Origin: Alphaproteobacteria bacterium
Lineage (GTDB): Bacteria > Pseudomonadota > Alphaproteobacteria > Bin95
NCBI GenBank assembly: GCA_963665325.3
Contig: CAXXWS020000003.1
Location: forward strand, 1,040,051 to 1,104,050
Length of the DNA stretch: 64,000 nt
Direction of reading: 5' to 3'
Positions 567 through 25,285 of the stretch are shown one piece after another. Every line of letters starts with the position of its first letter. Position 1 is the stretch's first letter. The position numbers were made by a program, and so were the translations under genes. Under the pieces are notes generated by a model. That model ran no database searches. It saw only the letters and a program-made list of their open reading frames with translations, and was not told where the DNA came from.

Positions 567-1886
567 CTAGACCGACGCATCCCAGGGGCATGCGGCGCGG
601 CGCTCCAGGTCGGCTCGCATGCTGGCGGCTTCCCAGTCGGCCGTGTTCGCAATGGCGTCGTTGGACAAGGGTCCGACGATCCCGGCCACATCGACGCCTT
701 TCCGCATGGGCAGAGCTGTCTCCTCGTTCCCGGCCAGACCCTCGATAGCCCCCCGCAACAGCCTGCGATACTGCACGATACCTGCATCGGTCGCGCCCAG
801 ATGCTCCCTGGTGCGGTCCTGGATCGGGCCCATGCCCTCGACTGCCCACTGGTCGTGCACATTGATGTCGAGCCCCATGCCCGTATAGGTCCGGGCCTCC
901 TGTTCTTCCGGCCGGTATCCGTAATTGTTGCCCCTGTTCTTCAGCGGGGCGTAGTCGGGCAGGCTGTGTTCCTTTAACCGTTGCGCGCGCATCGTCTCTT
1001 TGTCCACCGGTTTGTCGAAACTGGTGAACAGGGAGTACCAGTAGCAGGTCTCGTCATCGACCGGCACGTGCCACTGGGTAATCGTCATCTCGCGGCTCAT
1101 CGGGATGCAGATCGCCGCGGGGAAGATCTGGTTCGTGACGCGCACATGGGTCAAGCCGTTTCCCATATGTCTGAGCGCGGTCAGCTTGAGCCCGAATTCG
1201 GTCTCCTCGACCCTGATCTCGGGACGCGGATATTCCCGCAGCAGCTGCGTCATGGGGATGTTGGTGCCGGTGGCCGCGCTGTCCCGGAACTGCCTGCCGT
1301 AGCCCGCCTTCGGGTCCTCGTCCTCGAGGAAGCGGTGCAGGAAGGAGGCGTGGGCAGGATCGATGCCGATTTCCAGCGCCTGCAGCCAGTTGCACTCCCA
1401 CAGTCCCTTGAACGCGAAGACATGCGTCCCGGGCGCCCGGAAGCAGTCGAAATTGGGGAAGGCCGGCGGCTCGCCGGGACCCATATAGGCAAAGACGATG
1501 CCGTTCTTTTCGACGACCGGATAGGATACCGACCTGATCTGCCTGAACATTTCCGAGCCCTCGGGCTCGCCCGGCTGTTCGATGCATCGGCCGTTGCGGT
1601 CGTAGAGCCAGCCGTGGAACGGGCAGCGCAGGCCGTTGTCTTCGCGGCGGCCGAAGCACAGGTCTGCGCCCCGGTGCAGGCAGTGCCTGCCGATCAGTCC
1701 GAGCCCCCCCTCATTGTCGCGAAACAGCACCAGCCGCTCGCCCAGAAGCGTCACCGGCACGACCGGGCGCTCGCCCTTCAGCTCGTCGCTGAGCGCGGCC
1801 GGCTGCCAGTAGCGGCGAAGCACCTCGCCCGCGGGCTCACCCTTGCCCGTCCGGGTAAGCCGATCGTTGAGTTCCCGGCTCATCAT
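567..1886 (-). CDS. Rieske non-heme iron oxygenase alpha subunit (phthalate/vanillate oxygenase-like)
   Basis: Rieske motif CLH...CPFHGW and mononuclear Fe motif DPAHASFLH. Start MMSRELNDRL overlaps the reductase stop (ATGA). Confidence 0.92.
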   Translation of the reverse strand: MMSRELNDRLTRTGKGEPAGEVLRRYWQPAALSDELKGERPVVPVTLLGERLVLFRDNEGGLGLIGRHCLHRGADLCFGRREDNGLRCPFHGWLYDRNGRCIEQPGEPEGSEMFRQIRSVSYPVVEKNGIVFAYMGPGEPPAFPNFDCFRAPGTHVFAFKGLWECNWLQALEIGIDPAHASFLHRFLEDEDPKAGYGRQFRDSAATGTNIPMTQLLREYPRPEIRVEETEFGLKLTALRHMGNGLTHVRVTNQIFPAAICIPMSREMTITQWHVPVDDETCYWYSLFTSFDKPVDKETMRAQRLKEHSLPDYAPLKNRGNNYGYRPEEQEARTYTGMGLDINVHDQWAVEGMGPIQDRTREHLGATDAGIVQYRRLLRGAIEGLAGNEETALPMRKGVDVAGIVGPLSNDAIANTADWEAASMRADLERRAACPWDASV

Positions 1887-18407: not shown

Positions 18408-19613
18408 ATGCAGCTCGAATTCACCGCCGAGGAACGCGCCTTCGCTGACGAGGTCGATGCCTTCTTCCGTGCCAACCTGGACCCCCGGCTCTCCGAGCAG
18501 GTCAAGCGCAACCCCTCCTATGTCTCCAAGGAGGACATGCGGCGCTGGCAGAAGGCGCTCTACGAGCAGGGCTGGATCGCGCCTAACTGGCCCGAGGAGC
18601 ATGGCGGCACCGGCTGGACACCGACGCAGAAGTTCATCTTCGAGGAAGCCTATCAGCGCTACTACGCGCCCCGGCTCTCGCCCTTCGGGCTGATGATGGT
18701 GGGGCCGGTGATCTACACCTTCGGCAGCGAGGAGCAGAAGGCCGAGCACCTGCCGGCGATCCTGAAGAGCGACCGCTTCTGGTGCCAGGGCTACTCCGAG
18801 CCCGGCTCCGGCTCCGACCTCGCCTCGCTGAGGACGCGCGCCGTGCGCGACGGCGACGAGTATGTCGTCAACGGCTCGAAGATCTGGACCAGCAGCGCGC
18901 ACAATGCCGACTGGATCTTCGCGCTGGTGCGCACCGACACGGAAGCCGCAAAGCAGCAGCAGGGCATCTCCTTCCTGCTGATCGACATGAAGACGCCCGG
19001 CATCGAGGTGAGCCCGATTATCTCCATGGACGGCGGGCATTATCTGAACCAGGTGTTCTTCACCGATGTGCGCGTTCCGGTTTCGAACCGCATCGGCGAG
19101 GAGAACAAGGGCTGGACCTACGCCAAGTTCCTGCTCGGCAACGAGCGCGCGGGCGTTGCCGGTGTCTCCAAGTCGCGCATGAAGGTCGACCGGCTGAAGG
19201 AGATCGCCCGCACGGAGACCGGCGCGGACGGGGGAAAGCTCGGCGAGGACCCGGCCTTCCGCGCCCGCCTCGGCGAGATCGAGGCAAGGCTCGGCGCGCT
19301 GGAGATCGTCAATCTGCGCACGCTGGCGGCGGAGGAGAAGGGCGGCGGCGTCGGGCCGGAAGCCTCGATCCTCAAGATCTGTGGCACGGAGATCGAGCAG
19401 GCGCTCAACGAAATGCTGATCGAGGCGGTCGGCGTCGATGCGGTCCCCTATTCGCTGGAATGGACCCGCCTCGACACCAATGAGGAGCCGCCCATCGCCG
19501 ACCGGTCCATCGGCCTGATGAGCGAGCATCTGCTGAAGCGGGCGGCCACGATCTACGGCGGGTCGAACGAGATCCAGCGCAACATCGTCGCCAAGCACGT
19601 GCTGGGGCTTTGA
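18408..19613 (+). CDS. Acyl-CoA dehydrogenase (PimC-like)
   Basis: WCQGYSEPGSGSDLASL, GSKIWTS, TIYGGSNEIQR. Confidence 0.92.
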   Translation: MQLEFTAEERAFADEVDAFFRANLDPRLSEQVKRNPSYVSKEDMRRWQKALYEQGWIAPNWPEEHGGTGWTPTQKFIFEEAYQRYYAPRLSPFGLMMVGPVIYTFGSEEQKAEHLPAILKSDRFWCQGYSEPGSGSDLASLRTRAVRDGDEYVVNGSKIWTSSAHNADWIFALVRTDTEAAKQQQGISFLLIDMKTPGIEVSPIISMDGGHYLNQVFFTDVRVPVSNRIGEENKGWTYAKFLLGNERAGVAGVSKSRMKVDRLKEIARTETGADGGKLGEDPAFRARLGEIEARLGALEIVNLRTLAAEEKGGGVGPEASILKICGTEIEQALNEMLIEAVGVDAVPYSLEWTRLDTNEEPPIADRSIGLMSEHLLKRAATIYGGSNEIQRNIVAKHVLGL

Positions 19614-19618
19614 GCGCG

Positions 19619-21889
19619 ATGGCTATCGTCCACCACGGCTCGCACTGGGGCGCCTTCCGGGCCGAAACGTCGGAGGGGCGCGTCACCGGCGCGCTGCCCT
19701 TCGCCAAGGATCCCGAACCTTCCCCCATTGTGACCTCGATACCGGACGCCGTGCATCATCGCTCGCGCATAGAGGGACCGATGGCGCGGCGCGGCTGGCT
19801 GGACGGCGACGGCGGTGAGGGGCGCGGTCGCGATTCCTATGTAGCGCTCGACTGGGACCGGGCGGTCGATCTCATCGCGGGGGAGGTCGCGCGCGTCGGC
19901 CGCGATTTCGGCAACGCCTCGATCTTCGCCGGCTCCTACGGCTGGGCGAGCGCCGGGCGCTTCCACCACGCGAAGAGCCAGCTGCAGCGCTTCCTGAACA
20001 TGGCGGGCGGCTTCACCAGCCAGCTGCACAATTACAGCTATGCGGCGGGCCTCGCCGTGCTGCCGCACATACTGGGCGGCGTGGAGGCGGCGGCGGGCCC
20101 CGTCACGGACTGGCCCTCCATCGTGGAGAACACCGGGCTGATGGTGTCGTTCGGCGGCCTGCCGGTGAAGAACGCGCAGGTCGATTCCGGCGGCAATGGC
20201 GAGCATGCCGCGGCCGCCTATATCCGCGAAGCGCGGGCGCGGGGCGTTCGCTTCGTTGCCATCTCGCCGCTTGGCGACGACCTGCCGGCGGACCTGGGCG
20301 GGGAATGGATTCCGATCCGCCCCGGCACCGACACCGCCATGATGCTGGCCCTCTCGCAGGTGCTGCTGGCCGAAGGGCTGGCCGACCGGGCATTCCTGGA
20401 GCGCTATTGCACGGGCGCCGCGGCCTTCGAGGCCTCGCTGGAAGGCAGAACGCCGGAATGGGCCGAGGGGATTACCGGCGTGCCGGCCGCGCGCATCCGT
20501 TCGCTCGCCCGCGAGATGGCGGGCGCGCGCACCATGATTTCGACCGCCTGGGCCCTGCAGCGAGGCGACCATGGGGAGCAGCCCTTCTGGGCCACCGTGG
20601 GGCTCGCGGCCTGCCTCGGCCAGATCGGCCTGGCCGGCGGCGGCTTCGGCTTCGGCTACGGGTGCGTCTCCGGCATCGGCGCGCCGCGCCACGGCCTTTC
20701 CGGGCCGACTTTCCCGATCGGGCCGAACCCGGTCGATGACTTCATACCCGTCTCGCGCATTGCGGACATGCTGCTCGATCCGGGCGGCGACTACGATTTC
20801 AATGGCGAGCGGCGGCGCTATCCGGATACGCGCCTCGTCTATTGGGCGGGCGGCAACCCGTTCCACCACCACCAGGACATCAACCGGCTGATCCGCGCCT
20901 TCCGCCAGCCGGAAACCGTGGTCGTGCACGACCCCTGGTGGACGGCGACCGCGCGCCACGCCGATATCGTCATCCCGGCAACCACGACGCTCGAGCGCAA
21001 CGACATAGCCGCCGGCAGGCGGGACCGCTTCTGGCTCGCCATGCACCGCGCCATCGACCCGGTCGGCCGGGCGCGCAACGACCACGATGTCTTCGCCGAT
21101 ATTGCCGACCGCCTCGGCTTCCGCGAGCGCTTCACCGAGGGCCTCGGTGAGATGGAGTGGCTGCGCCGGATGTATGACGAGGCCTGCGGGCGCGCGGCCG
21201 AACGGGGCCTCAACCTGCCGGACTTCGACGCCTTCTGGGACGAGGGCCATGTGGAGCTGCCGCGGCCGGCGCGCCCGCGCATCCTGTTCGAGGGCTTCCG
21301 CAGGGGCGAGGATGCGCTGGCGACGCCTTCGGGGAAGATTGAGCTCTATTCGGAGCATGTGGCGGGCTTCGGCTATGAGGACTGCCCCGGCTATCCGGCC
21401 TGGCTGCCGCCGAAGGAGTGGCTCGGCGCGGAGGCCGCACAGCAATGGCCGCTGCACCTGATCTCGAACCAGCCGGCGACGCGCCTCCACGCGCAGCTCG
21501 ACCAGGGCCGCGTGTCGCAGGCGAGCAAGGTGCAGGGCCGCGAGCCGATCCGGCTGAACCCGGCGGACGCCGCCGCGCGCGGCATCGCGGACGGGGACGT
21601 GGTGCGCGTGTTCAACACCCGCGGCGCGCTGCTCGCGGGCGCGGTGCTGAGCGGGGAGGTCGTGCCCGGAGTGGCCGTGCTCGCGACCGGCGCCTGGTAC
21701 GACCCTGCCGACCCTGCGGAGCCGGACAGCCTCGACAAGCACGGCAACCCCAATGTGCTGACCGCTGACCGCGGCACCTCGAAGCTCGGCCAGGGACCGA
21801 GCGCGATGAGCGCGCTGGTCGAGGTCGAGCGTTTCGAAGGCGAACTGCCCCCCGTCACCGCCTTCGAGCCCCCCGACATCGCTGCATGA
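19619..21889 (+). CDS. Cytoplasmic bis-MGD molybdoenzyme, BisC/TorZ (S-/N-oxide reductase) family
   Basis: SHWGAF, GSYGWASAGRFHHA, YSYAA, WAGGNPFHHHQD, HGNPNVLT; no Tat leader. Confidence 0.9.
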   Translation: MAIVHHGSHWGAFRAETSEGRVTGALPFAKDPEPSPIVTSIPDAVHHRSRIEGPMARRGWLDGDGGEGRGRDSYVALDWDRAVDLIAGEVARVGRDFGNASIFAGSYGWASAGRFHHAKSQLQRFLNMAGGFTSQLHNYSYAAGLAVLPHILGGVEAAAGPVTDWPSIVENTGLMVSFGGLPVKNAQVDSGGNGEHAAAAYIREARARGVRFVAISPLGDDLPADLGGEWIPIRPGTDTAMMLALSQVLLAEGLADRAFLERYCTGAAAFEASLEGRTPEWAEGITGVPAARIRSLAREMAGARTMISTAWALQRGDHGEQPFWATVGLAACLGQIGLAGGGFGFGYGCVSGIGAPRHGLSGPTFPIGPNPVDDFIPVSRIADMLLDPGGDYDFNGERRRYPDTRLVYWAGGNPFHHHQDINRLIRAFRQPETVVVHDPWWTATARHADIVIPATTTLERNDIAAGRRDRFWLAMHRAIDPVGRARNDHDVFADIADRLGFRERFTEGLGEMEWLRRMYDEACGRAAERGLNLPDFDAFWDEGHVELPRPARPRILFEGFRRGEDALATPSGKIELYSEHVAGFGYEDCPGYPAWLPPKEWLGAEAAQQWPLHLISNQPATRLHAQLDQGRVSQASKVQGREPIRLNPADAAARGIADGDVVRVFNTRGALLAGAVLSGEVVPGVAVLATGAWYDPADPAEPDSLDKHGNPNVLTADRGTSKLGQGPSAMSALVEVERFEGELPPVTAFEPPDIAA

Positions 21890-22006
21890 GCGCATCTGGG
21901 CAATCGCATTTCAGCTTCGGCGGCTTCGGTCCGCACGGACTCTCTGTAGGACCGGACGCTTTCCCCTTTCGTCACCCCGGCCCCCGAGCCGTGTGTGGAC
22001 GCCTCC

Positions 22007-22258
22007 CTGGATGCAAGCAGTTTTTTCGGCTTGGTCGGGCCTATGCGGTCAGGCGGAGTCGTGTGTCCGGTTTCCCTTGTGCGGCACTTGAGTTGCCGCG
22101 GGCCAGTATGGAGATACGCGGATCGGGTCCATATCGGGGTCATGCGCTCGCGGCGCGCCGGCTCAGCCTGGTTTTCCCGATCCCGTCTCATTGACCGTTT
22201 GCCCTTACCCCTTGCCTCGGCCTGCCTGCATCCTCCGACGGCTCGCCGCACCGCCTTC
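22007..22258 (-). ncRNA. Putative bridge/seek RNA in the 3' non-coding region of the IS
   Basis: Position typical of the IS1111 group. Contains short matches to the target (cggggtc at 22135, ccggctc at 22158) and to the donor junction (tcgtgtgt at 22059). Confidence 0.65.
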
Positions 22259-23290
22259 TCAGGCGGCTGCGGGAGCCCGGTAGGTCTCCTTCTTCACGGC
22301 CAGCGCCCACAGGATGCGCGCCATGCGATTGGCGAGCGCGACGGCGACCAGCTTGCGCTTCCCTGGCTTGCTCGCCAGCAGGCGCGCCAGCCAGGGATCG
22401 TTGCACTTGCCCCGGCGGATGGCGTTCTGGATCACCGACATCGCCCCGACCACCAGCAGGCGGCGCAGGTCCTTCTGGCCCATCTTCGAGATCTTGCCGA
22501 GCCGCGGTTTGCCGGCTGTACTGTGCTGGCGGGGCGTGAGGCCGAGCCAGGCAGCGAAGTCGCGCCCCTTGCGGAAGGTTTCGAGCGGCGGGGCCAGGGC
22601 CTGGAGCGCCAGCGCCGTGACCGGCCCCACCCCCGGCACGGTCATCGCGCGGGCCGCCTCCTCGTCCTCGCGCGCGGCGGCCCGCAGCGTCCGGTCCAGC
22701 TCTCTGACCTTCCCGTCCAGCTCGGCGATCCGTTCCAGCAGCAGTGCCCCCATCTCGTGCGTCAGCGCCGGCAGAGACGCCCCCTCTTCGCCCTCAAGTG
22801 CCCAGGCCAGACGTGCCACATGCGCCGGCCCCTTGGGAGCTACAAGGCCGAACTCCGCTAGATGGCCCCGCAGCGCGTTGATCGTCTGCGTGCGCTGGCG
22901 CACCAGAAGCATGCGCACCCCCAACTGCATCGCCCCCGCCTGGCTCTCCTCGCTCTTCACCGTCACGAAGCGCATGGTCGGGCGCTGCGCCGCCTCGCAG
23001 ATCGCCTCCGCGTCCGCCGCGTCGTTCTTCTGCCGCTTCACATAAGGCTTCACATAAATCGGCGGGATCAGACGAACCTCATGGCCCAGCTTGCCGATCT
23101 CGCGGCCCCAGTAATGCGCACCCCCGCACGCCTCCATCGCAACCGTGCAGCGAGGTTGAGACAACAGAAACGCCAGAACCCGACCCCGCGACAGCTTGCG
23201 ACGGAACGCCACCGAGCCGTCCGAATACGCGCCGTGCATCTGAAAGCTGTTCTTCGACAGGTCCACCCCGATGATGCTAACCTCCTTCAT
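22259..23290 (-). CDS. IS110-family DEDD recombinase/transposase
   Basis: IGVDLSK, AMEACG, KNDAADAEAI, and the serine loop HSTAGK. Confidence 0.95.
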   Translation of the reverse strand: MKEVSIIGVDLSKNSFQMHGAYSDGSVAFRRKLSRGRVLAFLLSQPRCTVAMEACGGAHYWGREIGKLGHEVRLIPPIYVKPYVKRQKNDAADAEAICEAAQRPTMRFVTVKSEESQAGAMQLGVRMLLVRQRTQTINALRGHLAEFGLVAPKGPAHVARLAWALEGEEGASLPALTHEMGALLLERIAELDGKVRELDRTLRAAAREDEEAARAMTVPGVGPVTALALQALAPPLETFRKGRDFAAWLGLTPRQHSTAGKPRLGKISKMGQKDLRRLLVVGAMSVIQNAIRRGKCNDPWLARLLASKPGKRKLVAVALANRMARILWALAVKKETYRAPAAA

Positions 23291-23615
23291 TGGATGCCTC
23301 CTTCCCATTGGGGGTTTCAACAACACCACCATGGCACATTGCGATGCCGTCGGATGGAGGCGTCCACCCTATCGGGGTCCATCCATGGCTCTCGATACCG
23401 CCGCAACCGGTGGAGATGAGGGCGAACCGCCGAAGCTGCCGAGAGAACCGAGGCTGGGCCCCGGATCAGGGTCCGGGGCGACGCGTTGGGGATATGCAAT
23501 GCATTGCCGCCGGACGGAGATGTGTGCATGCGATAGGCTCGGCGTCCGGAGCGGCGACGGGGGGTAGGGCGAAAGGGACGCTCGAATCGGCCCGTTTTCG
23601 AATGCGATTGCCCGG

Positions 23616-24779
23616 ATGAGCGCATCGGGGCCGCTTGCCGGCCTTCGGGTGCTGGAGATAGCGGGCGTCGGGCCGGGGCCGCATTGCGCAATGCTGCTGG
23701 CCGACATGGGCGCGGATGTGCTGCGCATCGACCGGGTGCAGCCCCGCTACCGGGTCCATGCGCGCACCGACCTGCTGAACCGCGGCCGCCGCTCGGTTGC
23801 GCTTGACCTCAAGCAGCCTCGCGCGGTCGAGACTGTGCTCTCGCTGGCGGAAAAGGCCGACGTGCTGCTGGAGGGCTTCCGGCCGGGCGTCATGGAACGG
23901 CTCGGCCTCGGGCCGGAGCCTGTGCTCGCGCGCAATCCGAAGCTCGTCTTTGCGCGGCTGACCGGCTGGGGGCAGACCGGGCCGCTTGCGGAGGCGGCGG
24001 GCCACGACCTCAACTATCTGGCCCTGACCGGCGCGCTTCACGCCGTCGGCCCGGCCGCCGGCCCGCCGGTACCGCCACTCAACCTCGCCGGCGATTTCGG
24101 CGGCGGCGCGCTCTATGCCGCTTTCGGTATCCTGGCGGCGCTGTTCGAGCGCGGAACCTCCGGAAAGGGGCAGGTGATGGATGCCGCGATGGTGGATGGC
24201 GCGGCCTCGCTGATGACCTTCGTGCAGGGGCTCATGGCCGCCGGCTGGTGGCGGGACGAGCGCGAGGCGAACCTGATCGACGGCGGCGCGCCCTTCTACC
24301 GCTGTTATGAGACCGCGGACGGCAAATGGGTGGCGCTCGGCGCCATCGAGCCCGAGTTCTACGATGCCTTCCTGAGGCTGACCGGCCTCGACGGCGAGGG
24401 GCTGCCGAAACGCATGGACCGGGCCAACTGGCCGGAGCTGACCGAGCGCTTCAAGCGGCTGTTCCTGACGAAGACGCGCGAGGAGTGGTGCGCCCTGCTG
24501 GAAGGCACCGACGCCTGCTTCGCCCCGGTGCTGACCCTGGAGGAAGCGCCCGCCCACCCGCATATGGCGGCGCGGGGCGCGCTCGCCGCCAGCCATGGCG
24601 TCGTCCAGTCCGGTCCCGCTCCCCGCTTCTCGCGCACGCCCGGCGCACTCTCCCGCCCGCCGCCCGCACCCGGCGAGGACACGCGCGCGGCGCTTGCCGA
24701 CTGGGGACTGGACGAAACGGATATCGACGCTCTCATCGCTTCGGGCGGGGCGCTGCAGGCGGAAGCGACGGAGGAGTGA
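23616..24779 (+). CDS. CaiB/BaiF family III CoA transferase / alpha-methylacyl-CoA racemase
   Basis: GPGPHC, EGFRPGVMERLGLGP, GHDLNY, GDFGGG. Confidence 0.92.
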   Translation: MSASGPLAGLRVLEIAGVGPGPHCAMLLADMGADVLRIDRVQPRYRVHARTDLLNRGRRSVALDLKQPRAVETVLSLAEKADVLLEGFRPGVMERLGLGPEPVLARNPKLVFARLTGWGQTGPLAEAAGHDLNYLALTGALHAVGPAAGPPVPPLNLAGDFGGGALYAAFGILAALFERGTSGKGQVMDAAMVDGAASLMTFVQGLMAAGWWRDEREANLIDGGAPFYRCYETADGKWVALGAIEPEFYDAFLRLTGLDGEGLPKRMDRANWPELTERFKRLFLTKTREEWCALLEGTDACFAPVLTLEEAPAHPHMAARGALAASHGVVQSGPAPRFSRTPGALSRPPPAPGEDTRAALADWGLDETDIDALIASGGALQAEATEE

Positions 24780-24839
24780 GAGACCGGTTGGAAATTGCGC
24801 CGGAGCGGGATCCGGTTTGACGGCATCGACTGTTTGTTC

Positions 24840-24897
24840 GTAATTTATGAAATAATTCAAAAAATATCTTGACTCCGGGAAATTCCTCCCGATATTG
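24840..24897 (+). promoter_or_regulatory. Probable sigma70 promoter with AT-rich upstream tract
   Basis: TTGACT (24869) followed after 16-17 nt by GATATT/ATATTG, within an AT-rich island in GC-rich DNA. Confidence 0.45.
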
Positions 24898-25159
24898 GGA
24901 CACGAGGAAGGAAGCGGTATCCGCGCGGGGCTGCTTCCTTTCCCGGTTCGCGCCGGCGCGAAAAGACCCCTGAGAAACTGACGGGACAAGTGCGCCCTGC
25001 ATCCGGGTTCGCACGCGCGGGCGCAATCAGGCGCGCGAACCGCGCCGGCGCTAACGGGCGCCCGCGCCCGCGTGCGATACGCGCGAAACAGGGTCCTGCT
25101 GCAGCGGGTGAGCCGGCGCCGGGATGAACGGAACGAAGAGGGATCGAAAGGAGTGAACC

Positions 25160-25285
25160 ATGCCGAAGCCGCAAAGCCGGGGATATCGGACGGAATACCC
25201 CGAGCCCCGGTCCGAAACGACGGCTGCATACCCGAAGAGACATCAGGCTATGCGCTACACGCATGCGGATCATGACAAAACATGA
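25160..25285 (+). CDS. Possible 41-aa small protein
   Basis: AAGGAG 6 nt before ATG; MPKPQSRGYRTEYPEPRSETTAAYPKRHQAMRYTHADHDKT. Confidence 0.3.
   Translation: MPKPQSRGYRTEYPEPRSETTAAYPKRHQAMRYTHADHDKT

Follow-up and report, generated by a model that had tools for sequence, protein, structure and literature searches.

An IS1111-group insertion sequence in a REP-like palindrome of an alphaproteobacterial genome carries RNA segments that match its target and its own joined ends

An insertion sequence of the IS1111 group interrupts a palindrome resembling the repetitive extragenic palindromic (REP) sequences in the genome of an Alphaproteobacteria bacterium (GenBank assembly GCA_963665325.3). 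The sequence analyzed is a stretch of 64,000 nucleotides (nt) from contig CAXXWS020000003.1 (positions 1,040,051 to 1,104,050, forward strand), referred to below as the window, and positions given without a contig name are those of the window. The element is very probably intact and recently active, with RNA-guided, site-specific insertion at a CG core dinucleotide. This reading is directly supported by the anatomy of the element, by its site-specific insertion at three independent places, by the conserved fold of its non-coding region and by the covariation of guide segments in that region with the flanks and ends of the element. RNA-guided activity has been demonstrated experimentally for other members of the family (PMC11187229 and PMC11208160).

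The element occupies positions 21992-23374 on the minus strand and measures 1383 base pairs (bp) with one copy of the CG (23374-23373) counted in. The subterminal repeats, together with the sequence of empty sites, define its boundaries. On the minus strand, the left flank directly before the CG reads tggaccc. Members of the IS1111 group are recognized by subterminal repeats, unequal terminal extensions (7 bp left, 3 bp right), protein length and a long non-coding region downstream of the gene (PMC11187229, sections 4 and 6; the extension rule is given in section 4). The subterminal repeats of the element are perfect over 12 bp, which falls within the approximately 11-13 bp of the group, and the terminal extensions show the same asymmetry, with 7 bp on the left (CGATAGG) and 3 bp on the right (ACA). 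The transposase of 343 amino acids (aa) falls in the size range of 330-350 aa, and the non-coding sequence downstream of the gene is 267 nt long (22258-21992) versus 82 nt upstream (23372-23291). Every defining sequence feature of the IS1111 group, which belongs to the IS110 family, is found in the element. The sequence observations of an earlier note on this DNA are confirmed, and its interpretation as an RNA-guided IS1111-type element is supported. For the purpose of annotation, the element accounts for a 1.4-kb insertion inside an intergenic palindrome.

The transposase matches the N-terminal DEDD, RuvC-like domain PF01548 with an E value of 4.2e-13 (49.8 bits versus a cut-off of 29; residues 21-160 of a 357-aa reading) and the C-terminal domain PF02371 with an E value of 3.9e-21. 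It aligns with the IS621 and ISCro4 chains in the PDB over the C-terminal domain, across the catalytic Ser-Gly region, and the protein match to IS621 is confined to that domain (E value 1.5e-7). The motif GL-P----S/T-G reads GLTPRQHS-TA-G in the element, and in the alignment its Thr falls opposite the Ser of ESG in both the ISCro4 and the IS621 chain.

The host genome (5 contigs, 5.58 Mb, 67% G+C) contains three copies of the element, on contigs 4, 3 and 1, which are 100% identical over 1381 bp, together with one relative of 73% identity on contig 5 and short remnants. All three copies lie at the same nucleotide, in the same orientation, of the same palindrome. Empty sites are present in the same genome, where a 16-mer spanning the insertion point occurs nine times and a 29-mer eight times. 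When one CG is assigned to the element, the rejoined flanks reproduce the nine empty sites with no target duplication. The flanks of the contig-4 copy have only 22 bp in common with those of the contig-1 and contig-3 copies, and the flanks of the latter two have only repeat units of 70-136 bp in common, at approximately 90-95% identity. The flanks are otherwise unrelated among the three copies and, therefore, the copies are independent site-specific insertions and not segmental duplications. These results agree with several statements of the earlier note. Removal of 21992-23372 plus one CG does restore the palindrome, and the same empty site is found elsewhere in the genome (the 16-mer above); both other copies sit at the identical position of the palindrome, a check that the note had proposed; and its description of the element as intact fits an open frame of 343 aa and three identical copies in unrelated flanks.

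The interrupted palindrome consists of ACCCCGG, an 8-nt loop and CCGGGGT, and is intergenic at the window locus. Nine empty and three occupied sites give a family of 12, and 34 sites are found within two mismatches. The generic pattern CCCCGG-N4-12-CCGGGG occurs in the genome at chance level (102 seen versus approximately 103 expected). Six of the nine empty sites are inside a repeat of approximately 230 bp with terminal inverted repeats, and two of the three element copies sit in members of this repeat family. "REP-like", at low copy number, is a fair description of the target; a classical high-copy REP would go beyond the data. The nine empty sites are further genomic sites that the element could occupy. 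Searches beyond the host genome found no near-identical copy in the plasmid collection, where the best match had 82% identity over 22% of the query, and no identical element in the 30 related genomes searched, where the best match was 82% identical.

Three further observations concern these repeats and remnants. The approximately 230-bp repeat is found on contigs C1, C3 and C5, for example at C1 minus-strand offsets 1086486, 1086688 and 1088574 and at C3 plus-strand offset 375291. Its terminal inverted repeats start with TAGAGC, it carries two REP-like palindromes, it is arranged in tandem around the contig-1 element copy, and it looks like a small non-autonomous mobile element. In the window, a second REP-like palindrome at 23458-23479 (GCCCCGGA, a 6-nt loop, TCCGGGGC) is separated by 84 bp from the palindrome that the element interrupts. 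One arm, GGCCC-CG-GATC, has the target sequence of the 89%-identical relative L009 and not that of the resident element. At C1:1733445-1733618, a 5' remnant of approximately 177 bp of a 90%-identical element retains the left end and approximately the first 30 codons of the transposase gene, where it is truncated, and is preceded by a GGCCC-CG left flank.

Comparison of the guide segments started from 84 loci, comprising 80 relatives from public genomes (49-89% protein identity) and loci L001-L004 of the host genome. A motif-anchored search, used because one based on the longest open reading frame often failed to locate terminal repeats, identified GTGGA-type subterminal repeat pairs at 71 of these loci. 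Five loci with a repeat of another type or out of frame (L046, L051, L068, L072 and L085) were dropped, leaving 66 relatives. In the 7/3 frame, 57 of these 66 have the same dinucleotide on both sides, which is CG, TG or AG.

Two segments of the non-coding region match the target. The top-strand target guide, CUGAGCCGG, resembles a right target guide and pairs with the target C-CG-GCTCGG, with one G-U pair. The bottom-strand target guide, GACCCCGAUA, resembles a left target guide and is identical to the left flank GACCC, the core CG and the first three nucleotides of the left end. Both guides cover the CG, and the top-strand match is located 5' of the bottom-strand match, the order that has been described for IS1111 seekRNAs (PMC11187229, sections 4, 9 and 14). 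Own and cross pairings were compared for the 51 non-redundant targets among 60 usable loci, counting the longest exact run that covers the core and reaches at least 7 nt. The top-strand guide reached this length against the right flank in 25 of 51 own pairings versus 43 of 2550 cross pairings, and the bottom-strand guide in 29 of 51 versus 79 of 2550. In an alignment of 57 sequences, the five columns of the bottom-strand guide agree with positions -1 to -5 of the left flank in 79-91% of cases, and the core columns agree with the core in 95%.

Individual relatives show the same correspondence. For example, the contig-5 relative (73%) carries UCGUGGAGCA, AAUAAUGAU and ACAGAUGA, each of which matches its own flanks or ends; its target reads ...AATAA-TG / TC-CTCCACGA, and its ends are ATGGA and AGA. 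The 89% relative is one base off the window element in each target guide and sits in GGCCC-CG-GATCGG. Same-genus relatives of 74-82% identity, for which the frame was obtained at 12 of 17 loci, sit in GG(G/A)CCC-CG-G(C/A)TC sites and carry matching guides of up to 11 nt. The two other copies in the genome gave no case of unrelated targets served by the same segments, which the earlier note had named as evidence against its proposal, and diverged relatives with different guides sit in correspondingly different targets. A further segment, UGGAC, which follows the bottom-strand guide, was considered as a reader of the subterminal repeat and rejected; it is the 3' strand of P2b/P2 and does not track GTGGAT variants.

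Some loci depart from this pattern in their flanks or loops. The contig-5 relative (L004, C5:113347-114739) has a 24-nt tandem duplication in the target loop, which repeats the inner hairpin together with a portion of the bottom-strand guide, and its flanking dinucleotides are unequal, TG on the left and TC on the right; its RNA specifies TG. Four copies of one relative in Salipiger and Sedimentitalea (L027, L028, L030 and L057) have TG on the left and CG on the right, and their three RNA segments specify CG. The flanking dinucleotides are also unequal at L059, L066, L069 and L079. In these last two groups of loci, the inequality may come from heteroduplex repair at the core or from a different cleavage register. 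In one alphaproteobacterial genome with 12 copies (represented by L010, L011, L092 and L102), the shared left flank GTAAC-CG matches the bottom-strand guide, but at several of these loci the right flank bears no relation to the top-strand guide. Either a single guide can be enough, it would seem, or later rearrangement has altered the flanks.

The non-coding regions of 34 sequences, including the window element, were aligned to obtain a consensus fold, and the helices P1 to P5 are listed in Table 1. Standard pairs make up 95.8% of the cells of this fold, and 19 of its 28 pairs have changes on both sides. None of five fold measures was matched in 500 column shuffles, and pairing falls to 26-42% when partners are slid by 1-3 columns. 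Relatedness among the sequences inflates these figures, and weight was therefore placed mainly on the number of compensatory pairs. The helix P4 is invariant (GGCC/GGCC in 32 of 34 relatives) and thus gives no evidence for or against itself. A covariance model built from the alignment matches 45 of 51 loci outside its training set, some of which are near-duplicates of training rows. All three guide segments, including the donor segment described below, are unpaired in the consensus fold. The strings quoted in the earlier note, cggggtc at 22135-22141, ccggctc at 22158-22164 and tcgtgtgt at 22059-22066, are all present at these places. They fall in loops of a fold supported by compensatory changes and not in its stems, where the note would have counted them against its proposal. 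As the note had described, the two 7-mers flank a small GC stem (GCGC 22156-22153 with GCGC 22147-22144), which lies inside the internal loop. One relative, L039, gives a match to the RNA model on each strand, at 1125-1295 (plus) and 1394-1560 (minus), and this locus may hold two elements tail to tail.

A third segment matches the joined ends of the element. The donor guide ACACACGA, which resembles a left donor guide, consists of the last five nucleotides of the right end, the core CG and the first nucleotide of the left end, which is the predicted circle junction. Column 22063 is identical to right-end position -2 in 100% of the 57 aligned sequences, and column 22061 to core position 1 in 95%. 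The segment reads ACAGAUGA, ACAUACGA, ACAAAUGA, AUAUAUGA and ACGGAUG in relatives whose right end is AGA, ATA, AAA, ATA and GGA, respectively, and it tracks the CG, TG or AG core of each relative. In the comparison of own and cross pairings, 44 of 51 own pairings reached 7 nt. CUCCAU is a candidate second donor guide with moderate support, complementary to left-end positions 1-6 (ATAGGG) at five of six positions; all 11 relatives with the left end ATGC carry GGCAU at its place. An exact-match search for a guide complementary to the core and left end gave scattered hits at inconsistent positions and was replaced by the aligned-column test. Many RNA columns show an apparent covariation with positions 4 and 13 of the left end and position -11 of the right end, and this diffuse signal was read as shared ancestry and not as pairing.

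The joined ends would also form a promoter. The predicted -10 hexamer, CACGAT, combines the terminal CA of the right end, the core CG and the AT with which the left end begins, and it would exist only when the ends are joined. A TTG at exactly the -35 place, with a 17-nt spacer, is found in 49 of 54 distinct junctions of relatives, and no consensus promoter was found inside the integrated element. Junction promoters are known in the IS1111 family (PMC11187229, section 4) and are also described in PMC12288879.

The sequence of events proposed here is as follows. The DEDD/serine-type recombinase would act with an RNA from the 267-nt region downstream of its gene, in which two covarying helices enclose the internal loop and the GC hairpin divides it. 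This loop would present the two target guides. The segment CUGAGCCGG would pair with the top strand of the target (core and right flank) and GACCCCG(AUA) with the bottom strand (left flank and core), and jointly they would read approximately 13 bp, GACCC-CG-GCTCGG, inside the stem of the REP-like palindrome. The multiloop stretch ACACACGA, with its match to the joined right end, core and left end of the excised circle, would hold the donor. Recombination at the CG core would then insert the element in one orientation without target duplication, and joining of the ends would assemble the promoter TTGCAT, 17 nt, CACGAT, which would drive expression of both transposase and RNA. For this element, we infer RNA-guided catalysis, the circle, the junction promoter, RNA processing, transposition and strand-specific RNA expression from what other members of the family do.

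Several observations weigh against this reading, and some of them are taken up again with the explanations that they would favor. First, the guide matches have limits: the top-strand guide has only seven Watson-Crick pairs, one G-U pair and one further pair, 26 of the 51 loci have no exact top-strand match of at least 7 nt, and some multi-copy relatives keep the left flank and vary in their right flanks. Secondly, a scan of positions 21500-24000 against Rfam 15, with E values up to 10, assigned no family to the region and gave three chance-level hits that were irrelevant or outside it, and the non-coding region of the window, when folded alone, was not better than shuffled sequences (z = -1.56 and -1.19). 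Third, the RNA evidence consists of unstranded contigs from RNA libraries that possibly contain DNA. These contigs cover parts of the non-coding region and the gene, for example an exact 163-nt contig over 22074-22236 and a 374-nt contig from a relative over 21988-22303, and they carry no information on strand, ends or level. The word depth of 83 in the non-coding contig of one relative, versus 5-7 for gene pieces from the same run, was rejected as a measure of expression. Lastly, the second donor guide candidate is only modestly above the cross pairings, with at least five of six matches in 15 of 15 distinct own combinations versus 56% of 180 cross combinations; the catalytic Ser/Thr-Gly is Thr-Ala in the element, where Ala is found at 2 and Gly at 57 of 59 loci with a recognizable motif; and P4 contains two C-A mismatches in the window element and its closest relative, where a shifted CCC/GGG pairing is possible.

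Donor reading is where an alternative carries the most weight. Only the target loop may be functional, as a seekRNA of approximately 80-100 nt, with ACACACGA kept through overlap with structure or promoter and the ends read by the protein through the subterminal repeats. An 82-nt seekRNA of ISEc11 with the target matches alone sufficed in experiments and was more efficient than the long form (PMC11187229, section 10). In addition, the donor statistic is inflated by conserved ends, such that 610 of 2550 cross pairings also reach 7 nt, and the second donor guide is weak. However, the donor segment changes in step with rare end variants as well as with the core, it lies in an unpaired part of the consensus fold, and donor-binding nucleotides have been placed in the multiloop for many IS1111 orthologues (Durrant et al., PMC11208160). 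We consider a purely target-reading RNA doubtful, although it has to be taken seriously.

A fuller form of the proposed mechanism is put forward tentatively, as quite possible but not as the favored expectation. The downstream RNA of this clade might be a complete two-module bridge RNA, with a target loop in reversed order, a multiloop donor module in which the right end and core are read by ACACACGA and the left end by CNCCAU, a bottom-strand guide that continues, like a handshake, into the first nucleotides of the left end, and a programmable core embedded in the -10 hexamer. If so, RNA-guided donor recognition would work alongside long subterminal repeats, the published result that a short seekRNA is sufficient would represent only part of the natural mechanism, and retargeting of the core would change expression.

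The element could also be a genuine IS1111 member that is now inert, either because its copies spread through recombination of the repeats in which they lie, or because the Thr-Ala motif and a weakened P4 disabled it after its last jump. The motif differs from the Gly of most relatives at its second position, P4 is mismatched in the lineage of the element, two of the three copies are in members of the approximately 230-bp repeat family, and the search of 30 related genomes gave no identical copy. Spread by recombination would have to account for copies that are 100% identical over 1381 bp in repeat units that are approximately 90-95% identical around the C1 and C3 copies, and for a C4 copy with just 22 bp of flank in common with those two. 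The Thr-Ala variant is common to the element and one 89%-identical relative in another genome and has therefore persisted under selection; TA is also described as an occasional natural variant of the motif (PMC11187229, section 6). In addition, the frame is open and has a good ribosome-binding site. An inert element is thus unlikely.

The matches of the RNA to the flanks may, in the last alternative, be by-products, either of a REP fragment that was picked up or of chance in GC-rich sequence, with the protein alone reading the palindrome. The chance level was estimated by resampling the non-coding region 5000 times under a first-order Markov model. Complements of 7 nt that cover the core are not rare, with 1134 of the 5000 resamples containing one, both the target and the non-coding region are GC-rich, and a second, spurious 7-mer at chance level, CGAGCCG, is found just after the stop codon. 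The 7-mers presented as guides in the earlier note are therefore present but weak evidence alone, and their strength comes from position, structure and covariation in relatives. The bottom-strand match extends to 10 nt, GACCCCGATA, which occurred in 12 of 5000 resamples, and the 8-nt donor match occurred in 88. That the matches are by-products is highly improbable, given that all three matches occurred jointly in 0 of 5000 resamples, that relatives in non-palindromic, AT-richer or unrelated targets carry matches at the same two loop positions, and that the RNA is essential and reprogrammable in experiments on four IS1111 members (PMC11187229, sections 9, 10 and 14).

The reading of an active, RNA-guided element agrees with several characterized systems, of which ISPa11 is one. 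This IS1111 element of Pseudomonas aeruginosa also inserts into REP sequences (PMC11187229, sections 4 and 9), and its seekRNA, which is encoded downstream of the transposase gene and is recovered with the purified protein, has the top-strand match 5' of the bottom-strand match (PMC11187229). It differs from the window element in host lineage, REP sequence and guide sequences, and the two were compared by description only. REP-targeting IS1111 elements with target-matching RNA are already published (ISPa11, PMC11187229), and knowledge of the mechanism is unchanged by the present example. Bridge RNAs have been predicted for 93% of the IS1111 elements in ISfinder (PMC11208160).

ISEc11 and ISXne4 resemble the element in their subterminal repeats, 7/3-bp extensions, downstream non-coding region and junction promoter (PMC11187229, sections 4 and 10). 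Relatives of these two have been naturally retargeted by changes in the guides only (PMC11187229), and the same pattern is seen among the window element, the contig-5 relative and the same-genus relatives. The target of ISEc11 is a short linear sequence, whereas that of the window element is a palindrome. An RNA of 82 nt suffices for ISEc11, whereas in the window element a further donor-matching segment is conserved approximately 70 nt downstream.

In the RNA of IS621, of the IS110 group, a hairpin divides a single internal loop that carries two guides, both covering a dinucleotide core (PMC11208158), with a left guide for the bottom strand left of the core and a right guide for the top strand right of the core; the roles are the same in the element. 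According to the same source, a second module of the IS621 RNA reads the donor junction, and REP is targeted in E. coli. However, the IS621 RNA lies upstream of the gene with the left guide before the right, whereas that of the element lies downstream with the order reversed, and the donor module is a second internal loop in IS621, whereas the donor segment of the element lies in a multiloop. IS621 lacks long subterminal repeats and uses the core CT, whereas the element has 12-bp repeats and the core CG.

For ISPpu9 and ISPpu10 of Pseudomonas putida, also IS110-family elements, PMC12288879 reports site-specific insertion into REP at a conserved dinucleotide and a circle formed by joining of the ends at this dinucleotide, with ISPpu10 relying on a junction promoter. 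ISPpu9 is placed there in the IS110 group, which is without terminal repeats, whereas the element has subterminal repeats. The same text describes orphan copies of the small-RNA gene of ISPpu9; a covariance-model search of the host genome, which scored 150 out of 3533 first-look candidates, gave no such orphan RNA, and its four hits are all inside elements.

The element is of interest as a clean natural example of an IS1111 recombinase programmed with a CG core. Its relatives, in which guides, cores and ends vary in step, provide a comparative set for how IS1111-type RNAs read the donor, a question left by the published experiments.

Table 1. Positions of the features of the IS1111-group element in the window, with helices taken from the consensus fold and guides named by the strand or end that they are predicted to read
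Feature	Position	Strand	Remarks
Core dinucleotide CG, left junction (transposase orientation)	23373..23374	-	second copy at 21990-21991
Left terminal extension ATAGG	23368..23372	-	with CG forms CGATAGG, the 7-bp left extension
Left subterminal inverted repeat GTGGACGCCTCC	23356..23367	-	perfect 12-bp reverse complement of 21995-22006
Leader, 65 nt	between left repeat and ATG	-	includes GGAGG
Transposase gene, 343 aa	22259..23290	-	GGAGG ribosome-binding site upstream of ATG at 23290
Non-coding region, 267 nt	22258-21992	-	downstream of transposase gene; ends in right repeat and ACA
Conserved structured non-coding RNA region (seekRNA/bridge-RNA-like)	22036..22211	-	alignment and consensus fold
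Helix P1, closing	22196-22193 with 22050-22047	-	consensus fold
Helix P2	22183-22176 with 22127-22120	-	7 of 8 pairs compensatory; closes target-binding internal loop
Helix P2b	22171-22169 with 22131-22129	-	2 of 3 pairs compensatory; closes target-binding internal loop
Top-strand target guide CUGAGCCGG (right-target-guide-like)	22158..22166	-	unpaired strand between P2b and P3
Hairpin P3, small GC	22144..22156	-	4 of 4 pairs change on both sides
Bottom-strand target guide GACCCCGAUA (left-target-guide-like)	22132..22141	-	unpaired strand between P3 and P2b
Candidate second donor guide CUCCAU	22108..22113	-	5 of 6 complementary to left-end positions 1-6
P4 and hairpin P5	downstream of target loop	-	consensus fold
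Donor guide ACACACGA (left-donor-guide-like)	22059..22066	-	unpaired, multiloop between P4 and P1
TTGCAT, -35 half of predicted junction promoter	22011..22016	-	17-nt spacer
Right subterminal inverted repeat GGAGGCGTCCAC	22006-21995	-	followed by 3-bp right extension ACA at 21994-21992
CG core, right junction	21991-21990	-	followed by right flank gctcggg
Interrupted REP-like palindrome, one half	21970..21991	.	other half 23375-23381; rejoined halves equal nine uninterrupted genomic sites

The gene on one side of the element encodes a molybdopterin oxidoreductase (19610-21889, plus strand), and the gene on the other side a family III CoA-transferase (23616-24779, plus strand). An open frame of 587 aa at 23466-25229 on the minus strand has no Pfam match, overlaps the CoA-transferase gene on the opposite strand and is probably a spurious high-G+C frame.

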